This document shows, one piece after another, positions 20,049-64,000 of a DNA stretch of 64,000 nt. Origin of the DNA: Mobula hypostoma (taxonomy: Eukaryota); assembly GCF_963921235.1 (NCBI RefSeq), contig NC_086097.1, positions 80,788,001-80,852,000 on the forward strand, in the 5' to 3' direction. A program made the translations under genes and the position numbers. The number at the start of each line of letters is the position of its first letter. Positions within the stretch are counted from its first letter, which is position 1. The notes beneath the pieces were generated by a model that worked only from the letters and a program-made list of their open reading frames with translations, did no database searches and was not told the origin of the DNA.

Positions 20049-21149
20049 AAAATCTAGTGTTTTCAAATTTAAAAAATCACGGTCCCATGAAGTAATGGCT
20101 AACTTTTCCTTGTCTGGCTTTTCAATTATCTCACCAACTTCTCAATTATCTCATCTTCCTTGGTTTCACCTTATAAGTCAGTGGACTGCAAAATTAGCCT
20201 TATAACAAAAACACAGTAAAACTGTGTATTTCTGAATGCCAACTGATAGCTGGAATCATGATTTGATGATTGTTATTGATCTGCAGAAGTTCACGAAGAC
20301 GGAGGAGTTACATCTTTGAAAGCCCAGCACAATTAGACATTTCCCAAATGAATGTGACATATAATAAAGCTTTCTGTTTTACATGAAGTGATAATAGGAA
20401 TATATCTAATGCATACTCAGTATTACTGTACTAAAAGGAAGAGTTTCACTGGATCTACCACTGAGCATACAGTAATAGTGTACAAAGTATTCACCTATTT
20501 AGGCAGTTCCTGGGGATGCAGAAAAACTTGCTTGTCTCCTGTGTTTGTGAGTTGTAGAGCGACAGTTGAGGTCTCCTTCAGAGAGGGGAAAGGAGGTTCC
20601 TGATGGGGAGAGTGGGTGGGTAGTTTGCAGGGTACTCCACTGCTTCCACTATTTAAACTGGGCTCTGTGTACTCTTGACACGTGGACCTGAAATCCTTAA
20701 AACCACAGGAGTGCTCCTCTCTGTGGTATTGTCATATGCCAGAGATGTCCAGGAGTCGATAAGGATGCTTCAATTTTCGAGGAGGTTTTGAGGAACGTGT
20801 ATTCTTTTTTATGCACACGCATTCACTCACACTTCAGGTGATGCTGTCACATCCTTGTGGAAGGCCTTGCAGGTTTCAATCCCACTCCAAAGATGACACT
20901 CTACTCTACCACTGCTGTTACTTAGATAAATGTGGTTTTACAAGAGACCCCTTTGCCTATTCAAGCTGCAATAGGAGATTCTATTGTTGTATTTTAAACA
21001 AGATGAGGACATTCTCTCTCATATTCATCTTTAACTAACCAACAGAAATGATAACTCTACTTCTCCTTCAGGCCTGCTGGAATTTTCTGGTACTTTCAGC
21101 GAATGAAGTGAGCTTGGTGATATTTTTGAAAGGGAGAATACAATTGCAG

Positions 21150-26608: not shown

Positions 26609-27570
26609 TCAATGACTATTGTACAGTAGCAGCTACATCCACTGTGAGATGGAAGTCATGAAACATATCAACTTCTGCCAGAGGAGTGACTTAGATCCAC
26701 TCCATTTTGCCAACCATCACAACAGGTCAACAGCAGATGCCATTTCATAGGCTCTTCCTTCAACTCTGGAACATCTGGACAGTGAAGATATATTGACTAC
26801 AACTCTGTATTCAACATTATTATACCCTCAAAACTAATCAATAAGCTCTAAGACCAAGGCCTCAATAATTCCTTGTTCAACTGGATCCTTGATTTCCTCG
26901 TTTGCAGACACAAATCAGTTCAGATTGGCCACATCTCCTCCAGAATCATCATCAGCACAGGTACACCACAAGGCTTAGCCCCCTGTCTACTTGCTTTATA
27001 CTTATGACTGTGAGGCTAAGTACATCTCCAATACCATATTCAAATTTGCCGATGACACCATTGTTGCTTCCTAATTCAAGGGTGTTGGCTTATAGGAGAG
27101 AGAGTGAAAATCTGGTTGAATGGTGCCTCAACAACTACCTCATACTCAATGTCTGCAAAACCAAGAAGCCGAGGAGGAAGAAACTAGAGAGCCAATAGCC
27201 AGTCCTCTTCAAGGGGTCGGTGGTGGAGAGGGTCAGTAATTTTAAATTCCTCGGCATAATAATTTCAAAGGGTCTGTCCTGGGACCGGTACGTAAGTGGC
27301 ATTACAAAGAAGGCACTTTCCCTACTTCCTTAGAAGTTTGCATCCATTCAGCATATCATCTAAAACTTTGACAAACTTCTATAGATGTGTGGTGGAGAGT
27401 ATGTTAACTGGATACATCATGGCCTGGTATGGAAACACCAATGCACATGAATTGAAAAAACCTACAAAAAGTAGTGGATACAGTCCAGTCTATCACAGGA
27501 AAAACCCTCCCCACCATTGAGCACACCTACAAGGAGAGCGACCACAAGAAAGCAGAACCCAATATCAAGA

Positions 27571-27696
27571 TGCAAACACGAGGAAATCTGCAGACACTGG
27601 AATTTCAAGCAACACACATAAAAGTTGCTGGTGAACGCAGCAGGCCAGGCAGCAACTCTAGGAAGAGGTACAGTCGACGTTTCGGGCTGAGACCCT
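27571..27696 (-). mobile_element. PLE 3'-terminal repeat fragment with hammerhead truncated at stem II
   Basis: Near-identical to the arms of 61340-61590. Minus strand begins agggtctcagcccGAAACGTCgact and lacks CUGANGA. Confidence 0.8.
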
Positions 27697-28876: not shown

Positions 28877-29545
28877 CTCTACTGGTCGGGGTGGACCATG
28901 GTTGCTGTGTCCTTTCTGTCTACATTGTTGGCGCAGTGCCATCAGTTGATAGGCAAGTCGTGGCAGTATGATATAGAGAGCAGGCTTCCCCTCTCCACAC
29001 AGCTAATATATCCAAAGGAACTACAGAACTGATACAGTTTGGGACCAGCAGTGCCGCAGAACTTGCCAGTCAATGCTGAACTCAATGCTGGACTGCTATA
29101 GGGACTCCAGCTCTGGATTTTTCCTCAGGGTTTACTCCAGAAGCCTTCCCCATGAGTGGGTGTAGAAGGGTCTCGCCCGAAACGTCGACTGTACCTCTTC
29201 CTATAGATGCTGCCTGGCCCTGTTGCGTTCACCAGCAATTTTTGCGTGTGTTGCTTGAAATTTCAGCATCTGCAGATTTCCTCCTGTAGAGGTTTGAAGT
29301 CAGAGTTTTCCTTCTCCAGTATAGGCTGCCAGCCACGGCTGATGAGCCCCATCTGGCCAAAGTGACTGGTTTTAAGGCACCAGTAATGTGCCTTTGCCCC
29401 TTCTCCTGTCAGTAGAAACAGTTCCACCGGGCTTAGCAGCTAAGCCTCATATGAAGGCCAGGAGCTAGACTTGTATGTCAGAGGCTATTTGGGATGCACA
29501 CCATTGGGAGAATTTAATAGGTGTTGGGAGCTTATCCCCACTAAC
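28877..29545 (-). mobile_element. RTE-clade 5'-UTR-like non-autonomous element
   Basis: Minus strand carries ggagaaggaaaactctga, a motif I associate with RTE 5' regions, and shares segments with 2969-3152. Family call is by recognition only. Confidence 0.5.
29165..29287 (+). mobile_element. PLE 3'-terminal repeat fragment with truncated hammerhead
   Basis: gaagggtctcgcccGAAACGTCgactgtacctcttcc...cagcatctgcagatttcc. Same family as 61340-61590. Confidence 0.8.
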
Positions 29546-30408: not shown

Positions 30409-31218
30409 CCCTTGCAAGTTCCTTCTTCAACCAGTCGAAGCAAGCTCCTAGCCCAGGAATCACACTGCCTGGAGCAGGAACCCAGCATAAAGAAGTCCTG
30501 GAGTTAAATTTGAAAAGATTGTATTAAAAAAAAGTATTTTGCTAGGCTGCCTTACCTCATAACAGCTCTTCCACAAAGAGCTCAGCCTAAGGTTATAATC
30601 CCATCCATCCGTTTATATTCCATTCAGGTTGCATTCCAATTAGCTGGCTTTAAACTTTTTGACAATCTGACCAGTGAAAAGCAGCTTCAAGTTAATTTTG
30701 ATGTAATTGTTACTGATTTCAATACAGGATTGAACCATCACTGTTAAAACAGACCTTGATATTGACTGTTATTATTCTACAGTAAGTTGCAGCTCACTGC
30801 TTAACCAAGTCTTGTTCCTGTGATCTCCTTGAGATGTAAACTAATTTTCACTATCGCATTCTAATAACATTGACCCCAATCAGTCAGTGAAACCATATTA
30901 ACATCTCTGACTGAAACACATACTCACACATCATATTATTGAGACAATGGGTATTAAGAATCTGCATAAATGTTTACAGTATAACACCAAAGTAGACAGG
31001 AACTTTGGCCAAAGGAAGCACACCTGGAGCACGAATCAATTAATTCAACAGCTCGGTTAAGCACTCCTGACAGAGAGCTGGGTCAGATGTCACTTCTTTG
31101 GTTTGCTGTGAAAATACGTGGTTGAAAACCAGTTTCAGTAGAGATAAGCAGGCACAGTCTCAGAGTTAAATCATGTTATGGATGGGGAAATAGTTTCAGC
31201 GATTAAGTGTATATGTGA

Positions 31219-31368
31219 AACAAGAGAAAATCTGCAGATGCTGGAAATCAAAGTAATGTACATAAAATGATGGAGGAACTTAGCAGGCCAGGCAGCATCT
31301 GTGGAAACGAGTAATCAGTGGACATTTCAAACTGAGCCCCCTCGTCAGGACTGGGCCTGTGTAAAAAT
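31219..31368 (-). mobile_element. PLE terminal-repeat insertion with degenerate hammerhead
   Basis: 12-bp TSD gtgtatatgtga (31207-31218 and 31369-31380). Minus strand reads cagtc-CTGACGA-gggggctcagttt-GAAAtGTC-cactg. Confidence 0.75.
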
Positions 31369-36989: not shown

Positions 36990-39900
36990 CTCTCATTGAA
37001 CAGTGAATAAATAGTATTCAGTTTTGATTAGCAAGAATAAATTAAAGTAAGGCGGGGCAAGTGGACCGGCCATTGTTGGAGTGGTCAGAGTTAGAGTGGA
37101 GAATTTTTAGACTTTAGATCTTCAAAGCTTCAGTGAGAGAAGGCAAAAAAAGCTGCAGGTAAAGTCAACCCCCCCCCCCCAACACAGTTTGTTCTTTTTC
37201 TTTCCTTATATTTGCTCATTTAGAACACTAGAGATGCCAGGCAGGATAGTGGCATACCAGTTAAACAGCCAGTGCAGAGTACCCCTGTGGACATCCCCCT
37301 CAACTGCTCTGGATACTGTTGGGGGAATGACCTAGCAAAGGTAAGTCACAGTGGTCAGGTCTCTGGCACTGAGTCTGACTCTGTGACTCAGAAGGGAAGG
37401 GATAGAAGAGGTGAGTTGTGGTGGTAGAAGATTTGTTAGTTAGGGGAATAGAAAGCAGGTTTTGTGGAAGAGAGTGAGATACCCAGATGGTATGTTGCCT
37501 CCTGGGTGCCAGCAACACCTTGGATCAAGTCCTCAGCATTCTTAAGTGGGAGGGTGAACAGCCAGAGGTTGTGAGTCCACATAGGTACCAATGATATAGG
37601 TAGGAAGTGACAAGGTTCTGCAAAGGGAGTTCAGGGAGTTAGGTGCTAAGTTAAAGAGCAGGACCTCCAGGGTTGTGACCTCAGGACAGCTACCCATCCA
37701 TGTGCTGGTGATGCTAGAAATAGGAAGATTGTACAGTTTAACATGTGGCTAAGGAGTTGTTGTAGGATGGACAGCATATGAGTTTTGGATCATTAAACTC
37801 TCTTCGAGGGAAGGTGGGACCTGTACAGAAGAGACAGTTTGCACCTGAACTGTAAGGGGACTAATATCCTAGCAGGAAGGTATACTATTGCTGTATGGTG
37901 GGATTTAAACTGAACATGCAGGGGAATGGGAACCAGAGTGTCAGAACAGATAGTGGAGAGGTTGTGGAGACACATGCTGTTAAGACCTCAGACAAAGTCA
38001 AGAATCAAAAGGTTGAGCATGGTCCTGAGCTGTGTATATTTCAATGCAAGTAGTATTGTAGGAAAGGCAGATGAGCTCAAGGGATGGATCAGCACCTGGA
38101 ATTATAACATTGTAACCATTAGTGAGACTTGGTTGCAGGAGGGGTAGGATTGGCAACTGAATATTCCGGAGTTCCATTGCTTTAGATGAGACAGAGCGGG
38201 AGAGATTAATGTAGCATTATTAGTCAGGGACAATGCCATGGCAGTGCCCAGTCAGGACAGATTGGAGAACTCGTCTAGTGATGCATTATGGGTGGAACGT
38301 TAATGAGGCCACCCAAAAGTCTGAGGGACTTAGAGGAACAAATTTGTAGAGAGATCACAGATTATTGTAAGAATCATAAGATTGTTATTGTGGGTGATTT
38401 TAACTTTTTACATATTGACTGGAACTCCCATAATGTAGAAGGACTAGATGGAATAGAGTTTGTCAAGTGTGTTCAAAAAAATTTTCTTAATCAGTATATA
38501 GAAGTCCTGAGATAGTGTGTGATACTTGATCTGCTATTAGGAAATGAGAGAGGGCAGGTGACAGAACTTTTTGTAGGGGAACGCTTTGTATCTAGTGATC
38601 ACAACAATATTAATTTCAAAATAAATATGGAAAAAGATAGGTTCGGTCTGCAGGTTGAGATTCTAAATTGGAGAAAGGCCAATTTTGATGGTATCAGGAA
38701 ATATCTAGCAAGTATGGATTGGGACAGGCTGTTTTCTGGCAAAGGTGTACTTGGTTTTTTGGGAGTCATTCAAAAGTGATATTTTGAGAGCACAAAGCTT
38801 GACATACCTGTCAAAATAAAAGGTAAAGAGAATAACAGATTTAGGGAAACTTAGTGCTCAAAAGATATTGAGGACCTGGTTAAAAAAAAGGGAGGTGCAT
38901 ATCAGGTACAAGCAGATAGGGACAAATGAGGTACCAAGAGAACACTTGCATCAAAGATAAATCAGGAGGCTAAATGAAGACATGAGGTTGCCCTAGCAGA
39001 CAAGGTGAAGGAGAATCCCAAGGAATTCTACAGATATGTTAGAAGCAAAAGGATTGCAAGGGATAAAAATTGGTCCTCTCCTATGTGTGGAGCCAAAAGG
39101 ATAGTGGAAACCTTAAATGTATATTTTGCATCTGTATTTACTCAGGAGGAGGACACAGAGTCTATAGAGGTGAGAGAAAGCAGCAGTAAGGTCATGCACC
39201 CTATACAGATTACAGAGGCAGAGGTGTTTGCTGCCTTATGGCAAATTAGGGTGGATAAAACTCCAAGGCCTGACAAGCTGTTCCATCAGATCCTGTGGGT
39301 GGCCAGTGCAGAAAGTGCGGGGACCCTAGCAGAGATACTTAAATCATCATTAGCAGCAGCTAAGGTACCGGAGGATTTGAGGAAGGCTGATGTTGTTTCA
39401 TTGTTTAGGGAAGGTTCTAAAAGTAAACCAGGAAATTATAGGCTGGAAAGTTATTGGAAGGTGTTCTAGGGACCAGATATATTAGTATTTGGATAGTCAT
39501 GGACTGATTAGGGATAGTCAGCATGGCTTTGTGTGTGGTAGATCGTGTTTAACCAACCTTCTAGAGTTTTTCGAGGAAGTTACCAGGAAAGTGGATGAAG
39601 GCAACGCAGTAGATGTTGTCCACATGGACTTTAGCAAAGCATTTGACAAGGCCTTGCATGGGAAGTCTTTTGGAAAGGTTCGGTCAATTGGTGTTCAAGG
39701 TGAGGCAGTAAATATGATAACGTAGTTAAGCAAGTCAGCAAAATTGCGGATGACACCAAGATTGGGGGGTAGTGGACAGTGAAGGATACTATTAGAGCTT
39801 GCAATGGGATCTGGACCATCTGGAAAAAGGGGCTGAAAAATGGCAGATGGAATTTAATGCAGCAAGTGCATGGTGCTGCACTTTATTTGGATCAGCCAGG

Positions 39901-41518: not shown

Positions 41519-41655
41519 CACAGAATATTGAAGGAACTCAGCAGCATCTATGGAGAGAAATAAAAGGTCGACGTATCATGCTGAGACCCTTCATCAAGAC
41601 AGATGTTGTATGTGTTACTCTGGATTTCCAGCATTTGCAGAATCTCTTGTGTTTG
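41519..41655 (+). mobile_element. Older PLE terminal-repeat inverted insertion
   Basis: Left part ggaactcagcagcatctatgg...gtcgacgtatcatgctgagacccttcatcaagac is an antisense hammerhead relic. It is joined to the sense tail tttccagcatttgcagaatctcttgtg. Confidence 0.65.
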
Positions 41656-41814
41656 AAACAATGTGAGAAATGTGAAAATGGAATGACGAATTATCCAAAC
41701 TATTTCAGCTCAAGTCCTAAAGGCATGTAAATGTCAGAAGATGAGGTGATGTTCTTCAAACTGTAAAGGAGGCCAAAGGCAGAGTCCAGAAAATGTGTGG
41801 GATAAAAACTAAAG

Positions 41815-44005: not shown

Positions 44006-44007
44006 TA

Positions 44008-44237
44008 ACACACACAAAGTGCTGGAGGAACTCAGCAGGCCAGGCAGCATCTATGGAAAAGAAGTACAATCGATGTTTCAAGCTGAGACCCGAAAGTCCT
44101 GCCGAAGGACCTCAGCCCAAAACGTCGACTGTACTTTTTTTCAATAGTTGCTGCTTGGCCTGCTGAGTTCCTCCAGTATTTTGTGTGTGTTGCTTGAATT
44201 TCCAGCAGCTGCAGATTTTCTCTTGTTTGTCTCTTGT
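44008..44237 (+). mobile_element. PLE terminal-repeat hairpin insertion with mutated hammerhead
   Basis: Inverted arms and 15-bp TSD ctgtgctgtattgta (43993-44007 and 44238-44252). Core reads agtc-CTGCCGA-...-AAAACGTC-gact at ~44095-44130. Confidence 0.85.
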
Positions 44238-46217: not shown

Positions 46218-46547
46218 TTACTCTGGCTTCTCATTGTCAGCCTCTGGATAGGTTGGGTATTTAATGGTCTCGATGCTCTCCTTCACTTTGTAAGATGGAT
46301 ATAGGCCTGTTCGCCCAGATTTTCTGTTGATGCCTTTGGAATAACCATCCCAGTGGTTGCCAGCCACTCCAATCAGATCTCCAGGCTCCAATACAATTTC
46401 CTCTGGAGTCTGAGGTTTGTGAGGGTAAATTGCAATCTGATTGTGTGCATTCTGTCCACCAAAGTAGTATATGTCATCCAGAGAATGGAAATAACTTGAT
46501 GCGTCTGGGTGTAATGTTTGCATTATCTCATAGGCCACTCGACAAAC
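46218..46547 (-). CDS. FUT8: Alpha-(1,6)-fucosyltransferase, last coding exon (end of GT23 domain plus SH3 domain)
   Basis: Acceptor ttctatttcccag|GTT at 46548/46547. Translation [43 protein letters not shown]...[35 protein letters not shown]...[14 protein letters not shown] closely matches the vertebrate FUT8 C-terminus. TAA at 46220-46218. Confidence 0.97.
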
Positions 46548-47014
46548 CTGGGAAATAGAAACACAGAGTAATGGTTGTGTCAGTTTAAAGTGGCACTACT
46601 TTGCAGTATAATTAATAAAATTGTTCTTGACCTTCACCTGGCAGGTACTTAATGTTCTTGTGTAAAGTTTATAAAAGGATTGAGTTTGAATTTTCAACCA
46701 TGAAAAAAGCAAAATATTTTAAAGTTTTGTATATTTTATTGGAGCTCACATATTTCATCCTATGCCATCTGTGCAGTGATCGGTTCAACAATGCAAAATA
46801 CCTTCAACGGACCAAGGCATTGATGTTAGTTCAAGGACCTGTGGGATTCCATTAAAGTACAGAGAATTACTTATGAAAACATAGCCTGGATGTTTATAGG
46901 CTATTAAGTATTAGAAGCCAGGTGTTAGAAATATCAAGTTTTAGTTCTCTGCCCAATTTTAATCGCTTTGAATTATGGTACTCACTTGTAAAACCACATC
47001 TGCGTATCTGTTAT

Positions 47015-49254: not shown

Positions 49255-51742
49255 TAGAAAACCAAAGAAAAACTACAGCACAGAAACAGGACTTTTGGCC
49301 CTTCTTGGCTGTGCCAAACCATTTTCTGCCTAGTCCCACTGATCTGCACACGGACCATATCCCTCCATACACCTCCCATCCATGTATCTGTCCAATTTAT
49401 TCTTAAATGTTAAAAAAGAACCCGCATTTACCACCTCGCCTGGCAGCTCATTCCATACTCCCACCACTCTCTGTGTGAAGAAGCCCTCACCCTTAACCCA
49501 TGTCCTCTGGTTTTTTTCTCCCCTTGCCTCAGTGGAAAAAGCCTGCTTGCATTCACTCTATCTATACCTATCATAATTTTATATACCTCTATCAAATCTC
49601 CCCTCATTCTTCTACGCTCCAGGGAATAAAGTCCTAACCTATTCAACCTTTCTCTGTAACTGAGTTTCTCAAGTCCCGGCAACATCCTTGTAAACCTTCT
49701 CTGCACTCTTTCAACCTTATTTATATCCTTTCTGTAATTTGGTGACCAAAACTGAACACAATACTCCAGATTTGGCCTCACCAATGCCTTATACAACCTC
49801 ATCATAACATTCCAGCTCTTATACTCAATACTTTGATTAATAAAGGCCAATGTACCAAAAGCTCTCTTTACAACCCTATCTACCCGTGACGCCACTTTTA
49901 GGGAATTTTGTATCTGTATTCCCAGATCCCTCTGTTCTACTGCACTCCTCAGTGCCTTACCATTAACCCTTATTGTTCTACCTTGGTTTGTCCTTCCAAC
50001 GTGCAATACCTCACACTTGTCTGTATTAAACTCCATCTGCCATTTTTCAGCCCATTTTTCCAGCTGGTCCAAGTCCCTCTGCAGGCTCTGGAAACCTTCC
50101 TCACTGTCTACTACACCTCCAATCTTTGTATCATCAGCAAATTTGCTGATCCAATTTACCACATTATCATCCAGATCATTGATATAGATGACAAATAACA
50201 ATGGACCCAGCACTGATCCCTGTGGCACACCACTAGTCACAGGCCTCCACTCGGAGAAGCAATTCTCTACTACCACTCTTTGGCTTCTTCCATTGAGCCA
50301 ATGTCTAATCCAATTTACCACCTCTCCATGTATACCTAGCGACTGAATTTTCCTAACTAACCTCTCATGCAGGACCTTGTCAAAGGCCTTACTGAAGTCC
50401 ATGTGGACAATATACACTGCCTTCCCTTCATCCAGTTTCCTGGTAACCTCCTCGAAAAACTCCAATAGATTGGTCAAACATGACCTACCACGCACAAAGC
50501 CATGTTGACTCTCCCTAATAAGTCCCTGTCTATCCAAATGCTTGTAGATTCTGTCTCTTAGTACTCCCTCCAATAACTTACCTACTACCGACATTAAACT
50601 TACCGGCCTATAATTTCCCGGATTACTTTTCGATCCTTTCTTAAACAACTGAACAACATGAGCCACTCTCCAATCCTCCGGCACCTCACCTGTAGACAGC
50701 GACATTTTAAATATTTCTGCCAGGGCCCCTGCAACTTCAACACTAGTCTCCTTCAAGGTCCAAGGGAATACCCTGTCAGGTCCCAGGGATTTATCCACTT
50801 TAATTTTCCTCAAGACAGCAAGCACCTCCTCCTTTTCAATCTGTACAGTTTCCATGATCTCACTAATTGCTTCCCTTAATTCCATAGACTTCATGCCAGT
50901 TTCCTTAGTAAGTACAGACGCAAAAAACCTATTTAAGATCTCCCCCATTTCCTTTGGTTCCGCACATAGCCGGCCACTCTGATCTTCAAAAGGACCAATT
51001 TTATCCCTTACAATCCTTTTGCTCTTAATATACCTGTAGAAGCTCTTCGGATTATCCTTCACTTTGACTGCCAAGGCAACCTCATGTCTTCTTTTAGCCC
51101 TTCTGATTTCTTTCTTAAGTATTTTCTTGCACTTCTTATACTCTTCAAGCACCTTATTTACTCCCTGTTTCCTATACATGTCATACAACTCCCTCTTCTT
51201 CTTTATCAGTTGCAATATCCCTTGAGAACTAAGGTTCCTTATTCCTATTCACTTTGCCTTTAATCCTGACAGGAACATACAAACTCTGCACTCTCAAAAT
51301 TTCTCCTTTGAAGGCTTCCCACCTACCGATCACACCTTTGCCAGAGAACAACCTGTCCCAATCCACGCTTTTTAGATCCTTTCTCATTTCTTCAAATTTG
51401 GCCTTCTTCCAGTTCAGAACCTCAACCCTAGGACCAGATCTATCCTTGTCCATGATCAAGTTGAAACTAATGGTGTTATGATCACTGGAACCAAAGTGCT
51501 CCCCTACACAGACTTCCATCACTTGTCCTAACTCATTTCCTAACAGGAGATCCAATATTGCATCCCCTCTAGTTGGTCCCTCTATATATTGATTTAGAAA
51601 ACTTTCCTGAACACATTTTACAAACTCTAAACCATCTAGACCCCTAACAGTATGGGAGTCCCAATCAATATATGGAAAATTAAAATCCCCTACCACCGCA
51701 ACTTTATGTTTCCTGCAGTTGCCTGCTATCTCTCTGCAGATT
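49255..51742 (-). mobile_element. Young 5'-truncated CR1 (partial endonuclease, RT, 3' UTR) in FUT8 intron
   Basis: 155-aa ORF (VGDFNFP...SDHN) and 595-aa ORF (NYRPVSL, QHGFVRGRSCLTNL, GVPQGSVLGP, KFADDTK) separated by a TAG at 51229-51231. Confidence 0.95.
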
Positions 51743-52090
51743 ATGCAATATATGATTATTATTTGTTACTTACAATGGGGCCTTCTGTTCACTGAGGAGA
51801 TCAAGTGCACGTGAAATTATTGCTTTAGTGGACATATTAGCATAGTCCACTGATCTGAGCATGAACCTCTAGCCACCAGTCACTTCTATAATTCCTATTC
51901 GGAGCACTCCATCACTTGTTTCCTTTACAGTCCTAATGAAGGTAATTAGAGACTGGAGGAGCTGCATTTCATCTTTCAATTTAGCCATTTCTAGCAAAAT
52001 ACCCACAATTTTAGCTTTCAATCACTCATCCCATATCTTCAATGATTATGTGTTCATAGTGATTCTGCTATTCCCAATATTATTTCTTAA

Positions 52091-52289
52091 GCAAGAAAAA
52101 ATCTGCAGATGGTGGAAATCCAAGGAAAACACACAAAGTGCTGGATGAACTCAGCAGGCCAGGCAGCATCAATGGAAAAGAGTGAATAGAAAACAGTAAA
52201 ATGGTCTCAGCCCGAGACGTCAACTGTTTACACTTTCCTGTAAATGCTGCCTGGCCTGCAGATTTCCTCCAGCATTTTATGTATGTTGC
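52091..52289 (-). mobile_element. PLE terminal-repeat hairpin insertion
   Basis: Inverted arms (gcaggccaggcagcat / atgctgcctggcctgc) and 13-bp TSD tattatttcttaa (52078-52090 and 52290-52302). Confidence 0.85.
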
Positions 52290-53839
52290 TATTATTTCTT
52301 AACTTGTGTTACCACCATTGATTCTTGCCATGTCCACTGTCCTTTCTGTGCAACTCCTCACTCCATCCCTTTATCATTGCTGCCCTCAACCTTACCCTTA
52401 TATACTCTGAACCTCTTGTACTCACTCAAATACCGTTAAAACTTCTACTTATTTTTCAATTCTACTGAAAGCTGGAAGATCAACTCTATTTCTTCAAAGA
52501 TTCTACCTCACCTACAAGAACTGTCTTTTAGATTTCCTGTGGTGACGCCAACATGGTTTTACTGCTTCTCAGTAAATGTTTTTTCCAAACAAGTCAGCTT
52601 CAATTAATAGGCTTTGTCGACTGAAGATTACAAAGAGCTGATGAGCTTCTGAAGAAATCTGAGCTTTCACTTACTTTCAATCTAAAATATTCGCAATTCT
52701 GTGCAGTCTTACAACAAAATTCACCTGGCTAAAATTGAGATCTGCTCCTCCTGGAAAGAAAGAAAAGTCGAGTAGTAGTTGGGATCAAATTGAACTTATT
52801 TTAAATGCTACATTGAGCTACTTGGTTCACTTGATCAGACATTTTTTTCGTTTTACTCATTTCTCCCCCTCTTTCTCTACGACTGGAAATTAACTTGTCA
52901 TTACCCTTTTCCAATTCTGATGAAGGGTGCTGGACCTAAAATATTTAATGCTTCTCTTGCTGTCTGATCTACTGAGCATTTCCAGTATACTCTATTCTGA
53001 ATGCATTTTGATTTGCACTTACTCTCTATGATGGGCAGCAAAGATTGCCATCCACCTAAAACAGTGTTCAACCCTTTCTTTATGGTGGTGTTTGACGTTA
53101 TAACGTATCTGCCTCCAACTGAACCCTTTTCAATGCTGTTAAAAAGGATAAACCAATTCAATGACCCACAGTTGGATTTCCATATATTGTGTATATGCTT
53201 CGATTACTTTCTTATATCACTTGAGGTGCTCAGTAGTGAAATCAAATAAGAATTTTTTGACCCACAAGTTTCAGGAGTCGGTTTCATTTGGGAATCTGCA
53301 GCCATTTCAATTGAAATAAGAAATGTAGCATAATTAATATGACTGCTTTAAAAGCATTGTATTTGTCAGAACTGCCAATTTGAAACCTATCGTTCAAGCA
53401 AACAGAGAAAACAAACATAAACCTTTGTCAAGATGGAGCTGTGCTTGAAAATATTCGTACATCTGAGACAAGTTAAGCTGGCCTGGCTGAGCAGCAAGTG
53501 CTAAGGGAAGAGATTTTGCAAACAGTTTAAAGGAGACTATATCATTATGGAGGGCAGGTGTTATTAATTACAACAATACTTTAGTTAATTTCTGTCACAA
53601 TTTTAGATTTGATGGTGTAAAGTTTTAAATCCAGATCATTTGAGGCAGAGGATTAACAGAGGCAGAGAACTGATTTATAAGGTAGAATGGGGGAGGACTG
53701 GGGTGGGAGGAGAATAACTTTGAGCAATGTATCAAATTGTTACCCAGGATGACAAATTAAAAAATATTAACTTGAAGGAAAGAGGAATAAACTTAGGCTG
53801 TTCATACCCTCAGCTCTAGCTATTGTCACTTTATTTATT

Positions 53840-54226: not shown

Positions 54227-54453
54227 CAAACAACAGGAACTCTGCAGATGCTGGAAATTCAAGCAACACACATCAAAGTTGCTGGTGAACGCAGCAGGCC
54301 AGGCAGCATCTATAGGAAGAGGCGCAGTCGATGTTTCAGGCCGAGACCCTTCGTCAGGACTGACTGAAGGAAGAAAGTCTGAAACGTCGACTGCGCCTCT
54401 TCCTATAGATGCTGCCTGGCCTGCTGCGTTCACCAGCAACTTTGATGTGTGTT
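54227..54453 (-). mobile_element. Young PLE terminal-repeat hairpin insertion
   Basis: 75-bp inverted arms at 54265-54339 and 54379-54453 (1 mismatch). 14-bp TSD aaatgatttatctt (54213-54226 and 54454-54467). Confidence 0.9.
54325..54362 (-). ncRNA. Minimal type-I hammerhead motif (stem III variant AUC)
   Basis: cagtc-CTGACGA-agg gtctcgg cct-GAAAC-ATC-gactg. The 5-bp stem I and both core boxes are intact, but the palindromic ACGU is changed to ACAU. Confidence 0.65.
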
Positions 54454-54997
54454 AAATGATTTATCTTTGCTCTTCAGGCAAAACTCTTAGATACTGCCAT
54501 CCTTTAACACTTTGAAGGACTTAAATGAAGTCAGCATGGGAGGTCTCCAAAAAACAGTTGACTCACTCAAGGAAATGTGGTATTTGCTTTGAGAGCCCAT
54601 GCCGTTCAAGGAGAAAGTTAAACTGAGTGTTCAGTGCCAATGGTACACTTCCATGTAATTAGGACCGCGAGTATCTGTCCTTTAATGAGAGCAGCCACAT
54701 GGATGACTTATGTTCTTTGTGATAACTGTCAATAAACACAACCTCAGAGTTCAAACTTTTCCCTGCCCTTTAAAGTACTGCTCTACTATTAAAATAATTA
54801 GGGGCAAGCCAGGATGGTTTTAAAACTGTAACCTTATTGTGGGTTTAAGATGTTGCTTTACAACAACACAACATCATTCCAAGGAACTGAGAAATCACAA
54901 AAGCATCAAATATCCTGTGTAGGCTGTTCCGCCTACCGCACTGTGCTTGGCCTTTGCTTGTATAAACCAAACTCAATCCCTTTGTCAAATCTTAACC

Positions 54998-55885
54998 TGG
55001 GGGCAGATTTTACAATTAGTCAATACTTCCTCTATCTGTGCTAAACATTCCCTAATTCAATTTAAAGTTGTTCATAGAGCACATATGTCCAAAGGTAAGT
55101 TAGCGCACTTTTATTCTCATATTAATCCTTTTTGTGATAGATGTCCAGGGCAGATAGCCTCCTTAACTCATATGTTTTGGTCTTGCCCTACTTTGGAAAC
55201 TTTTTGGAGAGACATTTTTAATATTATCTCCAAGGTATTGAATATAGATATCTCTCCTCACCCTATTACTGCTATCTTTGGACTACCTAAAATTTCCAGT
55301 AATCTCTCCCCTTCAGCCCGTAGAATGATTGCATTTCTTACTTTAATGGCGAAAAGATGTATCTTACAACATTGGAAAGAGCTTAATGCTCCAACTACCT
55401 TTTTTTGGTTTTCTCAGACGATACTATGCTTGAATCTGGAGAAAATTAGAAGCAATCTTTATGACTCCTCATTTAAATTTGAACAGACTTGGAGATCTTT
55501 TATTCAATATTTTCATTTAATGTAATATATACCCTTCTTGTTTTTTTTTTACTGTTTTTAATGGAGGTCGGGATTGAGGACGTGATTTTAAGTTTAACTC
55601 TGTTTGGTTTCAAGTTAGCCCATTGCTTTGCTTTGCTTTTAGTTAGTTGCACGGTGGGTTTTTTTTGGGGGTTTTTTTTTTTCCTTTTCTCTATTGATAT
55701 ATATATATAAAATTAGTATACTATTATGTTACCTTGGTATGTTATGTTTAAATTACATTGTTTGTAGTATTTTTTTTGTATTAATATCTTCTGTAATTTT
55801 ATTATATTCTAACAGTGTATTAGTGTCTATATGGCTTACCTTTTTGTATACTTATTTAATAAAAAGATTTAAAAAGAAAGAAAGA
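54998..55885 (+). mobile_element. 5'-truncated L1-clade LINE (ORF2 C-terminus, 3' UTR, A-rich tail)
   Basis: LIQFKVVHR...CDRC....ASLTHMFWSCP (L1 CCHC knuckle), AATAAA plus (gaaa)n tail, and 11-bp TSD aaatcttaacc (54987-54997 and 55886-55896). Confidence 0.9.
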
Positions 55886-57361
55886 AAATCTTAACCACAC
55901 TCTGTCACCTGCCCTTCTTTTGAAAGATGCAAACCTCAATTATTCAGTGGGGGCGGGAGGGGGAGGGAAGCTGCACAGTAAACCTCTCCTTACATCCCAT
56001 TTAATAGTTCTCTTCTTAGGAACACTGTTGTAGCTCTCAAGGTTCTTGGCGCATGAAGCTGGCACTTCCAAACCAATTTCGCAAGGGCTTTAAGATTCCT
56101 CGTTTACCTATACAGTGTACTGTAGATGCCAGTCAAAGTGCCCAATCTCATGGATACTGTTCACCTCTGGTGCAGAATGAACCTGAGCAAGCAGGCTCTG
56201 ATACTCGATATCTAAGGGGACATTTTAAGCCAGTGAAATGGACAATGCACTATTGAAATTCAGGGTCAGTCTCAAGAGTATTTTTGTGGCAGAAAAACCA
56301 TGAATTTAATCTCCTGGAGTCAATTATGAAGAGAGCTTTTCTGAATAAATTTGAGTAAGAAATTCTCAAAGTTACATTGTTGCCATTAGCAAGGTGGTTG
56401 TTTCAATTTACTGACCATCAGCTATTTGTCACAAAGGAAAGATAAAGTTGATGGTATTTACATTTTAATACATAGCAGAATAGCAAGGCTAATAACAGTG
56501 TGGCACACTGAAAACAAACTGCCTGGAGCAGATATCATCAATGGGAACAGCACGAGTTGGATATTTTTGTCACTTTTCAGCTCCAACCAATGCACAATCA
56601 AATTTAAGGATAGAAAAATAATAATAGAACATATTGAATTGAGGTGAAAGTGAAATAAAGACCTCATTGGGAGAAATAGGTAACGACAAAGTGAAAAAAT
56701 TAAGACTAGTTTACTATTTGTGCATCTCCATTTACTATGTGTGAGTGGTACACAGTTTCAAACACTTCTGGCCTGTGTTTCAATGTTTAATTGCATTAGC
56801 AGAAGACTACAAGGCTCCTTGTGCTGTGAAGTATGAGTTCTCACATTCCAGTTCCTTCTCACAGCACAAATCAGCTGAGAGCGAGTTCCTCATTCTGCAA
56901 GACCTGAGGCAATAAATTGCAAATACTCCAAATCTACAGCAAATCCTTGCTCTTTAGCTTTTTCTTCATAGCTGCCAAATTCTGGATTATTTTACTCATT
57001 TCAACAGCTTTCCCAATAAACTCAATTATTCTGCAAGCAAATTCTGACACTTTATTTTCAGAAGCCAGTTTCAGGTCAGATGTATCTATTTCTGAAACGT
57101 TAAATTAAACTCCATAATGAAATCCATTTTATTGAAAATATTGAATTTTACTTTTACTGAAACTTGTTGTGATCCAGGTAATTGGGTAACATGAGTACTC
57201 TGTATTCACAAACAATGACATGGCTCACTTCTAACCATTCCAGCTTTAATTCATTTTCTTCCAATCTTCAATTCCCTCCCTTCTCAATGATTAAGTCTGT
57301 AGGCAATTTCCACCTATCACAATGGCACATGAATCACCAATGTTCCCTCTAAGAGGTAGGT

Positions 57362-57362
<1 letters not shown>

Positions 57363-57408
<46 letters not shown>
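57363..57408. repeat. (GT)n microsatellite
   Basis: Uninterrupted GT dinucleotide run of about 23 units. Confidence 0.95.
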
Positions 57409-57409
<1 letters not shown>

Positions 57410-57499
57410 TGTCTCTCTGCCTCTCTGCAGATTTTAGAACAGGCTTATTTATACTGCTTTTAGTTGAAGAAATTATTGATTGACTATGTCGAATTCCAA

Positions 57500-58812
57500 A
57501 GAAGCAAAGAACTGGTTATGGATTGCATTAAATCCCATCTTCCTGCTATATTGGTCCCTTTCCAGTTTGCTTATTGCTCAAATTGGTCCATTGATGATGC
57601 CATAGTCTGTGCACTCCATTCCACCATGTCCCATCCAGAAAATGGTGCCTTATATGCCGGGATGCTGTTTCTTGACTTCAATTGACTTCATTTAATATGA
57701 TCATCCCTTAGAATCCCTTGTTGGGCCTCAACCCCTCTTACTGCAATTGGATCCTGGACTTCCTGATAGAAAGACCACGGTCAGTCTATGTTGGCAGAAA
57801 CATCTCTAGCTCCATCATGTTGAGCACTGGTGCTCCCCGGGGCTGTGTGCTCAGCCCACTGCTGATACAGGACTGCACTGCTAGATCCAGTTCAAACAGA
57901 ATCAACAAGTTCACTGACGACACGGCAGTGGTTGGCTTCATCAACAACGATGACGAGATGGCATACTGAGAAGAGACAGAGCAGCTGGTAGAATGGTGTG
58001 AGTACAGCAATTTGAGTCCAAAGGTGGACAAGACCAAAGAGATGATTGTGGTCATCAGGAAGGAGCACGCTGACCACTCCTCGCTGCACATAAATGGCTC
58101 CTCCATAGAGAGAGTCAGGAGCACCAAGTTTCTGGGAGTCCCCATAACTGACGATCTCACCTCGTCCCTTAACACCACCTCTTTGGTCAAGAAAGCATAG
58201 CAGTGTCTCCACTTCCTGAGAAGACTGAGCTGATTGAGGATTTCTCCCCTCATTTTACCCAAGTTTCACAGCAGCACCACCGAGAGTGTCCTGACCAGCT
58301 GCATTGTCATCTGGTATGGGAATTGCAAGGCATCTGACCACAAGTCCCTACAAAGGATTGCGAGGGTTGCTGAGAGAATCCTTGGCTTCTCTCTTCCACC
58401 CATTAGAGATATTTATCAGGATTGCTGCATACCCAGGGCTCTTAGCATTATCAGTGATCCCTCCCATCCATCCAGCAATCTCTTTCACACCCTTCCGTCA
58501 GACAGGATCATCGCATTAGGACAAGAACTCTTAGGTTGGGAAACAGTTTCTTCCCCCAGACCGTTAAGGCTACTGAACTCCCTGCCACCACCCAGGTCTC
58601 ATCACATATGAAGCATCAGTAGCATTACACTGCTTACTTTTTAGCTTGATTTGTATATGCACCTTATTATTTGTTAATTTATTTGTGGTAATATTACTTC
58701 ATGTGTTATGTATGTGAATTATATGCACAGTGTTGTGCACTTTAGTCCGAAGGAACACTGCTTCGTTTGGCGGTATACATGTTTGCAGTTAAATGACAAT
58801 ATTCTGAACTTG
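57500..58812 (+). mobile_element. Degraded Rex1/Babar-type LINE RT and 3' end
   Basis: [45 protein letters not shown]. Confidence 0.85.
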
Positions 58813-59728
58813 GCTTTGATAATATTTATTTTGATCCCCATTTTGGTAACAGATTCCAGATTTTCACCACCATTTGGCTAAATAAATTTATTCTGAATTC
58901 CTTATTGGATTTCCTGGGGAGCACCTTACTTCAACAGCCTATAATTATATGCTTCCCTATAAGTGGAAGCATTCCCTCTGCAATACTCTATCAAAACCCT
59001 TGATAACTTTAAAGATATCCAAGTCACACCTCAGCCTTCTTCACTCGACAGAACAGAGACTAAATTCTAGTACAGGCTTTAAAATTTTCTACTGCACTCA
59101 TATAGATACCAGAATTATGAGCAGTATGCTTTAGTACAGTTTAACTTAAACCTGACATAACTTCCTTATTTTGAATTACATTCCTTTAGTAATAATGCCT
59201 ATGTTGCATTTTTTTTTGTTTTTCTATGGCTTTGCTAACTGTTAGATTAAACCTATCATGATTTTGTACTCCGAGGTCCCTTTGTTCTACTACCATTCCC
59301 TGACCTTCAAAGAAATAAGTGAATGCTCTCCTATCAAAATGTACCAGCTCACATTTACCTGTGCTGAACTCCATTTGCCAATTATATGCCCATTCTGCAA
59401 ATTTCTTAATGTCCTCTTGCAACCTGCTACAAATTTCCTCAGGATATTTTCCACATAGCCTCTAGCTTATTAATGCATTGTCTACCTTCCTCCTTAAATA
59501 CAGGGATCGGATTAACTACCAACCGGTCTTCTGGCACCACAGCTTTTTCTAACCAATTATTACAATTGGTTGGCCTATTATTGTCTCTGCTCTCTATTCC
59601 TCAGATTCTTTGAAAATGTGTGGACCACAGGTTTTATTCTCTTTGTGGTTGATTAATTCATTTAATAAATCTTCTTAATGTAAATGAATACAATTCAATA
59701 GCCATCTCATCATCTAATGTCATATCTA

Positions 59729-59795
59729 AAGTACTGTGCAAAAGTTTCAGGCAGATATATACAGCTAGGGTGACTAAGACCGTTGCACTGTACTG
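59729..59795. mobile_element. Small palindromic Tc1/mariner-type MITE
   Basis: agtactgtgcaaaagtttcaggca...tgactaagaccgttgcactgtactg, flanked by TA on both sides. Confidence 0.7.
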
Positions 59796-60208
59796 TATTT
59801 GTCAAAAACGAGCTTGCAAATCTGGCAGGAACATCAGGTGTTGGGAATGGTGAGGGTGGAGTGCCGGAAGAGGGACATGGAACAGGTGCACAGAAGGAGT
59901 GGCAGGGCCTGGGTGCTGGGTGGGATGGCACACGTGCAGACACACACAGCCCTGAGACACCAAGCAAAGTCACTTGATTCCAAACAGCCGGTTTGTTGAT
60001 CATTACAGAATGTCTCTCTGGTGCCTCCTGCACCCTCCCATCTCCCTTCCCCATATTCTAATTATGATTCCCCTCTCCCTGCCCCCTTCCCACTTTCAGT
60101 CCACAATAGAGACCTATATCAAAATCAGAATTATCATCAATCACTCACATATGTCATGAGACTTGTTTTTTTGGTGGCAACAGTACGGTGCAATACATAA
60201 AATTGCTA

Positions 60209-60412
60209 CAGAACTGTGGAAAAGTCAGGCACCCTAGCTACACACACACACACACATATATACACACATACATATATATGCATATATTATATATATATGT
60301 ATGTGATATGTATATTATACACACATATACATTATACACACACATATATGCATATATTATATATGTATGTAATATATATATTATATAATATATTATACAC
60401 GCACATACATTT

Positions 60413-60474
<62 letters not shown>

Positions 60475-60517
60475 CATACATATATGTGTGTGTGCCTAAG
60501 GCTTTTGCACAGCCTTG
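60209..60517. mobile_element. Second copy of the same MITE, inverted, with an internal (CA/TA)n expansion
   Basis: cagaactgtggaaaagtcaggcaccctagcta-[~250 bp CA/TA microsatellite]-gtgcctaaggcttttgcacagccttg, with TA flanks. Confidence 0.7.
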
Positions 60518-60959
60518 TACATTCCTTTGCTTTGCTATATCTCCCCGAATCCTTCTCTGGATTAAATTCCACCTGGCACATTTTGGCCCAGTTGACCAGA
60601 TCAGCTCTTTTCCTCTGAAGTTGAAAGCTTTCTTCCTCCATGTAAATCACAAGGTCCTTTTCTGTACATCTGCAATCTTCTTAATCAGGCTCTACACTTA
60701 GGTCTAAACAAAAATGTGCATCACAAAATCAAGGATCTGAGAAATGAACCTGAGAACTCAGTGGTAACAAGTCCTAAACCACAAGTCAACTATTATCCTC
60801 TGCTTCCTACCATGGAGCTACTTTACAATCCTTTTTTCACTTTATTGTTTATCGCAGGCACATTTACAGTACATTTTTAATCACATTTCTGTGCAGGTCC
60901 TTGTTAAAAGCATTACTTACATCTATGCAGACTACCTGAAATGCAGTATCCTTATCAAC

Positions 60960-61155
60960 CCTGTTGCTGTATGTAAGGAGTTTGTACATTCTCCCCATGA
61001 CTGTGAGGGCTTTCTCCTGGTGCTCTAGTGTCCAACACTTGGGTGTTATCCCCAGCACATCCTTAGGTTGTGCTGCTGGTTAATGCCAATGGTACATTTC
61101 ACTGTATGTTTCAATGTACAGCACACGTGAGAAATAAAGCTCATCTTTACCTTTG
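60960..61155 (+). mobile_element. V-SINE fragment
   Basis: ggagtttgtacattctccccatgactgtgagggctttctcctggtgctc V-domain core and aataaagc tail. Confidence 0.6.
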
Positions 61156-61402
61156 ATCCTCCTTGTAAGCTCCTCAAAAATGTAAGTGTTTGTCAAACAC
61201 TACCTTTCTTTGACATATTCATGCTGACTCCTTTTGACTAATCTGTGTCATTTTAAATGAGGGTTCACACTGTGTTTCAGAATTAACTTCATTGATTTGC
61301 CCAGCACTGAAGTTAAACTAACTGGACAGTATTTATGTGGCAACACACATAAAAGTTGCTGGTGAACGCAGCAGGCCAGGCAGCATCTCTAGGAAGAGGT
61401 GC

Positions 61403-61438
61403 AGTCGACGTTTCAGGCCAAGACCCTTCGTCAGGACT
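61403..61438 (-). ncRNA. Minimal type-I hammerhead ribozyme motif (FUT8 sense strand)
   Basis: agtc-CTGACGA-agg gtcttgg cct-GAAAC-GTC-gact. Confidence 0.75.
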
Positions 61439-61455
61439 AATGTCAGAACTAAGTT

Positions 61456-61491
61456 AGTCCTGACGAAGGGTCTCGGCCTGAAACGTCGACT
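61456..61491 (+). ncRNA. Minimal type-I hammerhead ribozyme motif
   Basis: Stem I agtc/gact, CUGACGA at 61460-61466, stem II agg/cct, GAAA at 61480-61483, palindromic ACGU stem III, GUC triplet. Predicted cleavage after 61487. Confidence 0.8.
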
Positions 61492-61844
61492 GCACCTCTT
61501 CCTAGAGATGCTGCCTGGCCTGCTGCGTTCACCAGCAACTTTTATGTGTGTTGCTTGAATTTCCAGCATCTGCAGAATTCCTGTTGTTTGAGTATTTATG
61601 TGCTGCTGTCATCCTCCTATTTAGAACAAGAGTACAACCTTAGTGGTAGCCCAAAGCTCCAGCATTATTCCTGCAGCCAGGAGCGATTGAAAATCATGGC
61701 CAAGGCCTCTGCAGTGTCCTCAATTGCTTCTTATAATTGAACAAGGTATACTTCAATGTGGCCTGGCAATTTATCCACTTTCAACAATGTTAAGTTCTTA
61801 ATACTTCCTCTTTTAGTCTGGTCATCCTGTCCAATATTTCCTAC

Positions 61845-63030
61845 ATGGAATCAAACAGCATGGAAACTGGCTCTCCAGCCCAACTGGTCCATGCTGAGTG
61901 TGTTTCCCAGTAAGTTAGTCTCATCTGTCTGTGTTTAGTCCATAACTCTTTAAACCCCTCCTATCCACAAACTGATCTACATTGCTGATATGCCCACCTC
62001 AAAAACAATGTCTGGCAGCTCATTCCAGAATGTATCACCTTTTGCATGAAGCTCCTGCTTCTGACGTCCCTTTTAAATCTCTTGCCTCTGATTTTAAACC
62101 TATTCCCTGTTGTTTTTAGCAGCCCTCCCTGGGAAAAAGACTACATGCTTTCACCCTATCTATATCCTTCATGACCTTATACATATCTCTGTCAGGTCAT
62201 CCCTCAATTTCTTACGTTACAAGGAATGAAGTCCTATTCTTCGCAACCTCTCCTTACAACTGAGGTCCTCAAGTCTAAGCAACATCATGGTAAATCTTCT
62301 CTGCATTCTTTCTAGTTTAATACCAGTATTCCATCCACAATGTGACCAAAACTGTACTCAATACTCCAAGAGCAGCCTTACCATTGTCTTATATAAATAA
62401 CTGTAACATAATTTCCCAACTCCTTTACTCAGTGCCCTGACTGATGAAAACCAGCATGCCAAATGCCCTCTTCACCACCCTTTCTACACCACTTCAATGA
62501 ACTTTAGCCCTGTTCTATAACACTCCTCAGAGCTTTACCATCCAGTGTATAAGTCCTACCTTGATGTAATCTCCCAAAATAGAATAGCTCACATTTATCT
62601 GGATTGAAAACTATTTGCCAGTCCTTAGCCTCATAACCGAGTTGATCAAGATCACCCTGCACTAGATCACACTACCTACAACACCTATTTTAATATCGTC
62701 CGCAGACTTACTAAACATGCCTTCTACATTCACAACCAAATCATTTATTTAAATTTCAAAGGTACCAGCACTGACCCGCATGGCATACCACTAGACACAG
62801 GTCTCCAGCCCAAGAAACAACCGTTGACCATAACCTCTGCTTCCTAACACTGAACCAATCTGCTATCTTCCCTTGAATCTCATGCTATCTAATCTTCCAG
62901 ACTAGCCTACAATGAGAGACCTTGTCAAGGGCCTTGCTAAAGTCCATATAGACAGCATTTCACTGATTTACCTTCATCTACTTTCTTGGTTACCTCCTCA
63001 AAGAACCAGAGGTTGTCAGACACACTATCT
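61845..63030 (-). mobile_element. Degraded CR1 RT and 3' end
   Basis: gcactgacccgcatggcataccactag (antisense SG.P.GSVL), gaccttgtcaagggccttgctaaagtccata and a catggaa...aaacagcatggaaactggc tail. Confidence 0.8.
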
Positions 63031-63380
63031 TCTATAAAAAACATGAATTATAAATAGAATTTTCAATTCTCATAAAAGATAAACTTTTATTTTTCGCATA
63101 TAGCTCTTGTTCAAAGATAAAATAATAGCTGTTTCCTAACTTAAGTCATCTGATATAATTAAGGAAAAATAATCCTGAAATGTTCATTGGTAATAGACTC
63201 CAACTACTTCATGTAATGAAAAGTGACTGTCAAATTCACTTAAGCTGCTTTTTACAAATTAAATGATGTTTGATTAGCAAGCTTGCTGTCTTCCTCACTC
63301 GATTTATTTCTGCATTTAAAAGATTTTGGAAATAGCAAACTTAATCAAACTCACAGTTTATTTGGTGACATTGGTGACAT

Positions 63381-64000
63381 TCGGTGGTGGGGAAACTGCT
63401 GGAGTCAGTTATCAAGGATGTGATAACAGCACATTTGGAAAGCGGTGAAATGATCGGACAAAGTCAGCATGGATTTGTGAAAGGAAAATCATGTCTGACG
63501 AATCTCATAGAATTTTTTGAGGATGTAACTAGTAGAGTGGATAGGGGAGAACCAGTGAATGTGGAATATTTGGATTTTCAAAAGGCTTTTGACAAGGTTC
63601 CACACAGGAGATTAGTGTGCAAACTTAAAGCACACGGTATTGGGGGTAAGGTATTGATGTGGATAGAGAATTGGTTAGCAGACAGGAAGCAAAGAGTGGG
63701 AATAAAGGGGACCTTTTCAGAATGGCAGGCGGTGACTAGTGGGGTACCGCAAGGCTCAGTGCTGGGACCCCAGTTGTTTACAATATATATTAATGACTTG
63801 GATGAGGGAATTAAATGCAGCATCTCCAAGTTTGCGGATGACATGAAGCTGGGCGGCAGTGTTAGCTGTGAGGAGGATGCTAAGAGGATGCAGGGTGACT
63901 TGGATAGGTTGGGTGAGTGGGCAAATTCATGGCAGATGCAATTTAATGTGGATAAATGTGAAGTTATCCACTTTGGTGGCAAAAATGGGAAAACAGATTA
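63381..64000 (+). mobile_element. Young CR1 RT fragment running off the window, same subfamily as 10128-11870
   Basis: Near-identical reverse complement of ~10900-11515. The shadow ORFs 10911..11315 and 63578..63982 differ at only two residues. Confidence 0.95.

Follow-up and report, generated by a model that had tools for sequence, protein, structure and literature searches.

The window, that is, the whole stretch of 64,000 nucleotides of DNA that was analyzed, includes the final coding exon of the minus-strand gene FUT8. The FUT8 exons form a chain on the C1 minus strand and span more than 200 kb (G000:C1:80864032-81043175 plus the exon in the window). The last coding intron measures about 29.5 kb, and the exon preceding it lies about 12 kb past the end of the window. 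About 56% of the window was masked by repeats that are common to a 1.5-Mb sample of the genome. Long reading frames of non-LTR retrotransposons were present at 10574-11869, 38978-39469, and 49428-51765 on the minus strand and at 21271-22011 and 54923-55525 on the plus strand; we take these frames to be CR1-, L2-, and L1-like. A weak Pfam match to TIG_plexin at 20498-20731 on the minus strand (E = 0.0024, under the cut-off) possibly marks an exon of a neighboring gene.

Inside this last coding intron, the initial annotation had noted two hammerhead ribozyme motifs. The feature at this site is larger than the ribozyme pair and is one insertion with two arms of a Penelope-like pLTR and a target-site duplication (TSD). 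Sequence comparison within the 64-kb window delimited an insertion of 251 bp at 61340-61590 with an exact 12-bp target duplication on each side. The features of the locus are as follows.

46221-46595, minus strand: FUT8, reading frame with the last coding exon (Pfam FUT8_N_cat and SH3_9)
61328-61339, plus strand: left TSD, 12 bp; exact 12-mer with two occurrences in the window, whose flanking bases are unlike on both sides
61340-61440, minus strand: inverted pLTR arm without tail, unit +3 to +103; 101 bp, 1 mismatch versus the right arm
61403-61438, minus strand: minimal type-I hammerhead, sense to the FUT8 pre-mRNA; C17 = 61407; C>T at the loop II CpG; predicted to be masked by the hairpin
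61441-61452, plus strand: junction insert, a second tandem copy of 61429-61440 with 10/12 matches; the right arm shares its final base
61452-61590, plus strand: direct pLTR arm, 3' end of a Penelope-like element (PLE), unit 1-139; 5'-truncated at +1/+2
61456-61491, plus strand: minimal type-I hammerhead with stem I at 61456-59/61488-91, core at 61460-66, extra A at 61467, stem II at 61468-71/61476-79 (G10.1-U11.1), GAAA at 61480-83, palindromic ACGU at 61483-86, and C17 at 61487; fits the consensus in the part of the PMC4209133 supplement compared
61555-61590, plus strand: PLE tail of 36 nt, in one arm only
61591-61602, plus strand: right TSD, 12 bp; exact match to 61328-61339

Positions in the repeat unit are numbered with +1 = 61452. 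The two arms were identical at 100 of 101 positions, and the direct arm shared 100% or 99% identity over the unit with copies that run upstream into an RT/GIY-YIG open reading frame (ORF). Loose ends at 61555 and 61590 were present in public contigs. The 31-nt central junction occurred a single time in the 3.48-Gb assembly, and the hairpin was therefore likely built on insertion. Judged from the near identity of the arms and the perfect TSD, the insertion appears to be very young. Taken together, it is very probably the 5'-truncated end of a Penelope-like retrotransposon with an endonuclease, inserted in fold-back form; its hammerheads are passengers of the pLTR that the predicted 101-bp hairpin would hold inactive. 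The appropriate annotation of the repeat is PLE end, and not SINE, MITE, or microRNA hairpin; a scan of 56000-64000 with Rfam gave a sub-threshold match to mir-2766.

Both 36-nt motifs were found exactly where the initial annotation had placed them (plus strand, 61456-61491; minus strand, 61438-61403), and the single loop II change that it had reported between them was confirmed as C at 61474 on the plus strand versus T at 61420 on the minus strand, a CpG position that is also the sole difference between the arms. A search with hammerhead models had been suggested as a check, and its outcome was divided. A minimal hammerhead (min-HHR) descriptor composed of the core boxes, a 3-bp stem II, the palindromic insert, and a 4-bp stem I recovered exactly these two motifs in the 64-kb window versus none in each of 10 dinucleotide shuffles, whereas the Rfam hammerhead models missed them, with no match at E ≤ 1 over 56000-64000 or at E ≤ 10 over 61445-61505. 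In 700 kb elsewhere in the genome, the descriptor found 13 motifs versus 1 in 10 shuffles; the loose pattern CTGANGA-N4-30-GAAA is weak alone (14 matches versus 6.9 expected).

One detail of the earlier description had to be revised. Folding gave the proposed 3-bp stem II (AGG/CCU) a pair probability of only 0.02 and favored an extra unpaired A after A9 followed by GGGU/GCCU, that is, the pairs G-U, G-C, G-C, and U-G (P = 0.87-0.97). The published PLE min-HHR consensus has the same register, as judged from the part of PMC4209133 used here. The CUGANGA, GAAA, and UH core elements, the extra base between 9 and 10, stems I and II, and the palindromic stem III were all present. The G10.1-C11.1 pair was absent and replaced by G-U in both arms. 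In the alignment of PMC4209133, as far as it was covered, G10.1-C11.1 is a >80% consensus and some rows have G-U, so that G10.1-U11.1 does not bar membership in the min-HHR class.

The assignment of the motifs to minimal type-I hammerheads in a Penelope-like pLTR, and not to a SINE, was borne out by longer copies in the genome, which continue into an ORF for reverse transcriptase and a GIY-YIG domain. From these copies we derived a parent element of ~3.7 kb with RT, a CX4CxxC linker immediately before the GIY-YIG domain, and this C-terminal GIY-YIG domain in a single ORF. Pfam gave RVT_1 with E = 2e-5 (24.8 bits versus a curated cut-off of 29.6) and GIY-YIG with E = 1.6e-4 (22.3 bits versus 22.6), and YIDD, DKG, and GIY-YIG-type motifs were seen in the ORF translations. 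By the CX2-5CxxC linker criterion given in the section of PMC8557442 consulted, the parent would be an EN+ Penelope-like element of the Neptune/Nematis type. Two of 20 long loci (L050 and L062) were partial tandems in which an upstream 3' end is followed by a pLTR and then by the ORF; the L062 tandem unit has 3,721 nt, with direct-orientation hammerheads at both pLTRs, 3.7 kb apart. The first ATG of the parent lies at about +177, about 140 nt downstream of the cleavage site. Ahead of the RT, the ORF also contains a tandemly duplicated stretch of ~213 nt that encodes a Pro/Ser-rich spacer (L031:4940-5320 and the N-terminal part of L050 and L062).

The abundance of the family was determined in 150 arbitrary 10-kb stretches of large contigs, amounting to 1.5 Mb. 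This sample contained 205 pLTR segments, 26 close back-to-back pairs and no convergent ones, and 32 intact hammerhead motifs, all of the same pLTR family as 61340-61590. Extrapolation to the genome, with Poisson limits, gave about 475,000 segments, 60,000 (39,000-88,000) fold-backs, and 74,000 (51,000-105,000) intact motifs. Since no pair with both motifs intact within 120 nt occurred in the 1.5-Mb sample (upper limit about 8,500 genome-wide), the window copy represents a less common, very young case; one both-intact pair within 1 kb was found. Exactly one arm was tailed in 24 of the 26 fold-backs and two tails were seen in none, and the 3' ends of the family were bimodal near +103 and +139, as were the loose ends in public contigs. 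L077, one of the 24 one-tailed fold-backs, may consist of two neighboring insertions of different age. The back-to-back arrangement emphasized in the initial annotation exists as an opposite-strand pair, but it is a known PLE insertion pattern and no special arrangement of ribozymes. Seven further insertions of the family lie in the window (27552-27696, 29165-29287, 31218-31352, 41567-41656, 44007-44229, 52089-52298, and 54227-54462). Four of them are fold-backs, the copy at 54.3 kb carries G16.2>A, and none of the seven passed the intact-motif descriptor. Perfect hairpins of ~100 bp in introns, here in FUT8, are a possible source of double-stranded RNA.

The 5' ends of the copies were mapped for 134 segments, comprising 50 tailed arms chosen by +80 to +139 only, 24 opposite-strand partners, and 60 young segments from the unbiased sample. 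The analysis left out 47 of the 134 ends, which mapped upstream of -100. Among the remaining 87, which lie between -100 and +80, the interval +1 to +29 holds 52 and the interval +5 to +9 holds 23 (2.4 expected), with the reservation that the ends of local alignments may shift by a few bases and that microhomology between the arms contributes. Solo copies, too, begin at +4 to +7. A pile-up of 5' ends at the cleavage site was absent (1 of 87 at +35 to +39). This accumulation at the 5' edge of the ribozyme suggests uncleaved templates with a fixed 5' boundary. Two further candidates were rejected. A gap from +20 to +40 had hinted at another cluster of 5' ends at the cleavage site, but tighter mapping removed it (2 of 87 at +34 to +40 versus 3.4 expected). 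An AGT microhomology with the target site had been read from the top 30 matches to a query that held flanking sequence; long loci chosen by internal sequence end at about +139.

Leader or ORF-start sequence was joined to short copies at four loci (L013, L024, L219, and L233), so that templates extended beyond the tail. At these loci, leader/ORF-start sequence that ends at about +197 to +213 continues in the sense orientation into the pLTR, with the joint at -8 to +5, or is inverted. The junctions resemble the outcome of template jumping after run-off, and retrozyme-like tandems of ~200 nt could arise from them.

The 5' boundary of the RNA could be a start site, with an initiator-like TCAGT, or a 3' splice acceptor. 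In the oriented copies L050 and L062, unit positions -15 to +6, just upstream of stem I, hold a heptamer resembling a branch point, a pyrimidine run, and two AG dinucleotides, overlapping initiator-like TCAGT motifs. Penelope is described as having an internal promoter with an Inr in the relevant part of PMC2377424, and for D. virilis Penelope an intron end at the 5' end of helix I is mentioned in the text of PMC4209133 available to us. Of 200 motif occurrences, 66 had a non-colinear upstream context, and none of these was a spliced retrocopy, with an upstream exon joined at +3 or +7, which leaves the splice-acceptor idea unsupported by the DNA.

We consider the following scheme of insertion, taken as a whole, to be fairly likely. 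The element protein would cut both target strands, 12 nt apart. The two 3'-OH ends would then act as primers within the 5' pLTR of uncleaved element RNA, so that reverse transcription would begin once at +139 and once at +103, in an order that is not readable from the DNA. Both cDNAs would run off near the 5' edge, at about +1 to +3 at 61340-61590 and near +1 to +9 in the family, and repair would join the cDNA ends with a templated re-copy of 12 nt. Two internal RT start sites that define the tail, as well as cutting and extension of both strands, are described in the portion of PMC11167929 consulted, and an inverted pLTR together with a one-sided 30- to 40-bp tail is described in parts of PMC8557442 and PMC3846280.

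A broader interpretation is offered tentatively, as we judge it to be somewhat short of an even chance. The stumps may constitute a genome-scale fossil record of Penelope integration, made of "strong-stop" cDNAs that were primed from both strands (+103 and +139) and ran off at a fixed boundary corresponding to the first bases of stem I, either an initiator-like start or a conserved 3' splice acceptor with the branch-point-like heptamer. If true, the near absence of ends at the cleavage site would give in vivo evidence for a Neptune element whose template is uncleaved RNA with the hammerhead at its very 5' end, and one vertebrate genome would owe about 74,000 intact hammerheads and about 60,000 loci with perfect hairpins to a single family. 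The family-wide distribution of ends is the only part of our results that could teach something new, and specialists in PLEs may find some use in the results at the level of the family.

It is unlikely that the inverted arm arose without a second target-primed event, with an antisense template, or the first cDNA, being copied through self-priming or fold-back. Such an origin was proposed for head-to-head PLE palindromes in the part of PMC3846280 consulted, and it agrees with arms that differ at one CpG site only. However, +103 and +139 are fixed sites for the outer ends of the arms, 24 of the 26 pairs have a single tail, and these ends match the two RT start sites of PAc in vitro (PMC11167929, same portion). 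Copying by fold-back offers no cause for a repeated stop at +103, and the inner ends of the partner arms vary widely. Dual priming from the two cut target strands is the reading that we favor.

The initial annotation had looked to preferential conservation of the core boxes and to covariation of the stems as signs of a functional ribozyme. Preferential conservation was seen between subfamilies, but the motif decays neutrally in old copies, and no two-sided covariation was seen within this genome. In a comparison of five clusters with 137 aligned segments, 3 of 37 hammerhead columns differed between the subfamily clusters versus 24 of 65 downstream columns (p = 0.002), a contrast that is inflated because the clusters were defined on non-hammerhead columns. 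Among old copies, private non-CpG changes amounted to 62/706 in the core versus 360/4545 downstream (p = 0.41). The youngest cluster had fewer in the core (2/448 versus 57/2798, p = 0.013), and this deficit goes against pure neutral decay. Two-sided covariation of stems was absent from the subfamily consensuses and the column counts of this genome, which contained only one-sided changes that preserve wobble pairs. At position 11.1, U was present in 30 and C in 18 of 50 young copies; since C>T at other CpGs occurred in 1 to 7 of 50, U11.1 was inherited from master copies. On this comparison, the motif appears to be kept in the replicating master lineage with some relaxation and is probably not maintained by the host, the genomic stumps decaying neutrally. 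An A6C exchange in the hammerhead core marks an older subfamily (15 of 137 segments and 11 of 23 in one cluster, e.g., L074:314-693, L098:417-896, L105:8678-8936, and 44095-44229 in the window); this natural variant was reported to favor Mn2+ in the part of PMC7151607 consulted.

The earlier suggestion that this copy may still be catalytically competent is not supported by folding of the motifs in place. As they lie on opposite strands, no transcript carries both, and neither can serve as the dimer partner of the other. As they diverge, the antisense arm of each motif is transcribed ahead of it and is predicted to capture it at a penalty of 58 to 63 kcal/mol. Forcing the hammerhead fold instead of the hairpin was calculated to cost 63.2 kcal/mol on the plus strand and 58.3 kcal/mol on the minus strand (the FUT8 direction), nascent transcripts included, in nearest-neighbor models that ignore proteins and co-transcriptional splicing. 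The whole insertion folded at -220 kcal/mol (z = -31). In a lone arm, the penalty for the hammerhead was about 4 kcal/mol, because the core pairs with the strand of stem III (P about 0.98). A modeled dimer hammerhead (-11.1 kcal/mol) was worse than two core-trapped monomers (-23.8 kcal/mol), a comparison that ignores tertiary energy and is a hint only. Both motifs are intact in sequence and are predicted to be masked in place by the 101-bp hairpin; the likely product of FUT8 pre-mRNA, according to these models, is a 101-bp double-stranded hairpin. We infer that the motif works, if at all, in the full-length or tandem RNA of the parent, as a slow self-cleaver assisted by dimerization or protein. 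In the published results available to us, min-HHRs showed no cleavage as monomers and weak cleavage as dimers (PMC4209133), the PAc hammerhead required protein for cleavage and was itself dispensable for insertion (PMC11167929), and one of nine dimers of Xenopus retrozymes cleaved (bioRxiv 10.64898/2026.07.22.740005).

An active or host-useful ribozyme, which would cut, for example, the intron of FUT8 or a local RNA that begins in one of the arms, is very unlikely at this locus. It is true that both cores are intact, that a transcript begun at the center of the insertion would have one arm only, lowering the predicted penalty to that of the lone arm, and that the 5' ends of the family suggest an RNA boundary at the ribozyme edge. 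Yet the insertion is very young, so that intact cores need no selection, and the copy lacks the upstream pLTR sequence. There is no same-strand dimer partner nearby, the 54.3-kb copy being itself a fold-back in addition to its G16.2>A change. The weak or absent cleavage of published dimers and monomers argues against activity as well, as does the exchange of G10.1-C11.1 for G-U in 30 of 50 copies of the youngest lineage. Masked passengers of a PLE end are the reading that we prefer.

Also very unlikely is a non-autonomous MITE- or retrozyme-like hairpin that was transcribed, self-cleaved, and re-inserted whole. In its favor, the fold-backs are very numerous (about 60,000 extrapolated) and one junction 20-mer recurs at more than one locus (L008, L017, and L114). 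Against it, this recurring junction rests on AG microhomology and its loci differ in the tailed arm, the junction of the window copy is unique in the genome, 48 young pairs had no ADAR-type A>G skew between the arms (A>G 18, T>C 17), and the motifs at 61340-61590 are inverted and not arranged as the head-to-tail tandem with a hammerhead in at least two consecutive units that defines a retrozyme.

As a single locus, the insertion carries little weight, being a young non-coding transposon stump of a kind described from 2013 to 2024; the ribozyme class, its location in PLEs, the inverted layout, and the tail are all already in print. A description of this pLTR family was not found in the literature by title or abstract, and the family may well be catalogued in Repbase or Dfam. 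It was absent from the covered rows of supplement file 2 of PMC4209133, where shark, Callorhinchus, Leucoraja, and milii had 0 mentions.

With the PLE min-HHRs of Cervera and De la Pena (2014, PMC4209133, as far as that source was covered), the motifs share the CUGANGA core, the unpaired base before stem II, G at 10.1, the loopless palindromic stem III (GAAA-CG-UC), a stem I of 4 to 5 bp, the location in the pLTR, and mass dispersal as single truncated copies. Opposite-strand min-HHR pairs, 100 to 700 bp apart, are reported there for Schistosoma. The family differs in its ~74,000 extrapolated intact motifs, compared to ~4,000 in coelacanth and ~9,000 in Xenopus, which were counted with a different descriptor, as well as in the G10.1-U11.1 pair of the youngest lineage, also seen in some published rows, and in the A6C subfamily. 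The non-LTR retrozymes of bioRxiv 10.64898/2026.07.22.740005, in the part of the preprint considered, likewise derive from PLE pLTRs, carry type-I hammerheads, and were reported in one chondrichthyan genome; those are head-to-tail tandems with a ribozyme per unit, in contrast to the inverted opposite-strand pair with a TSD described here.

The EN+ PLEs of the Neptune/Nematis type (Craig et al. 2021, PMC8557442; Arkhipova et al. 2013, PMC3846280; sections consulted) have in common with the parent element and its insertions the RT with DKG, the CX2-5CxxC linker, the C-terminal GIY-YIG domain, partial tandems, the tail-less inverted pLTR, a tail (36 nt here, 30 to 40 bp there), and a TSD of 7 to 15 bp. 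Unlike them, the window copy lacks the entire ORF and retains ~100 and ~139 nt of pLTR. A mechanistic parallel in the text of Frangieh et al. (2024, PMC11167929) that we drew on is PAc (Poseidon, Anolis carolinensis), with two internal RT start sites that are separated by the tail and lie downstream of the pLTR hammerhead, an uncleaved RNA template, and two target strands that are both cut and extended, as would also be the case here. PAc belongs to the Penelope/Poseidon clade, and its ORF begins inside the hammerhead, so that its RT start sites lie inside the ORF, whereas both start sites in the present family precede the first ATG and lie in the leader. With the ends of tens of thousands of copies, the in vitro model of PAc can be tested in a different clade and in vivo.
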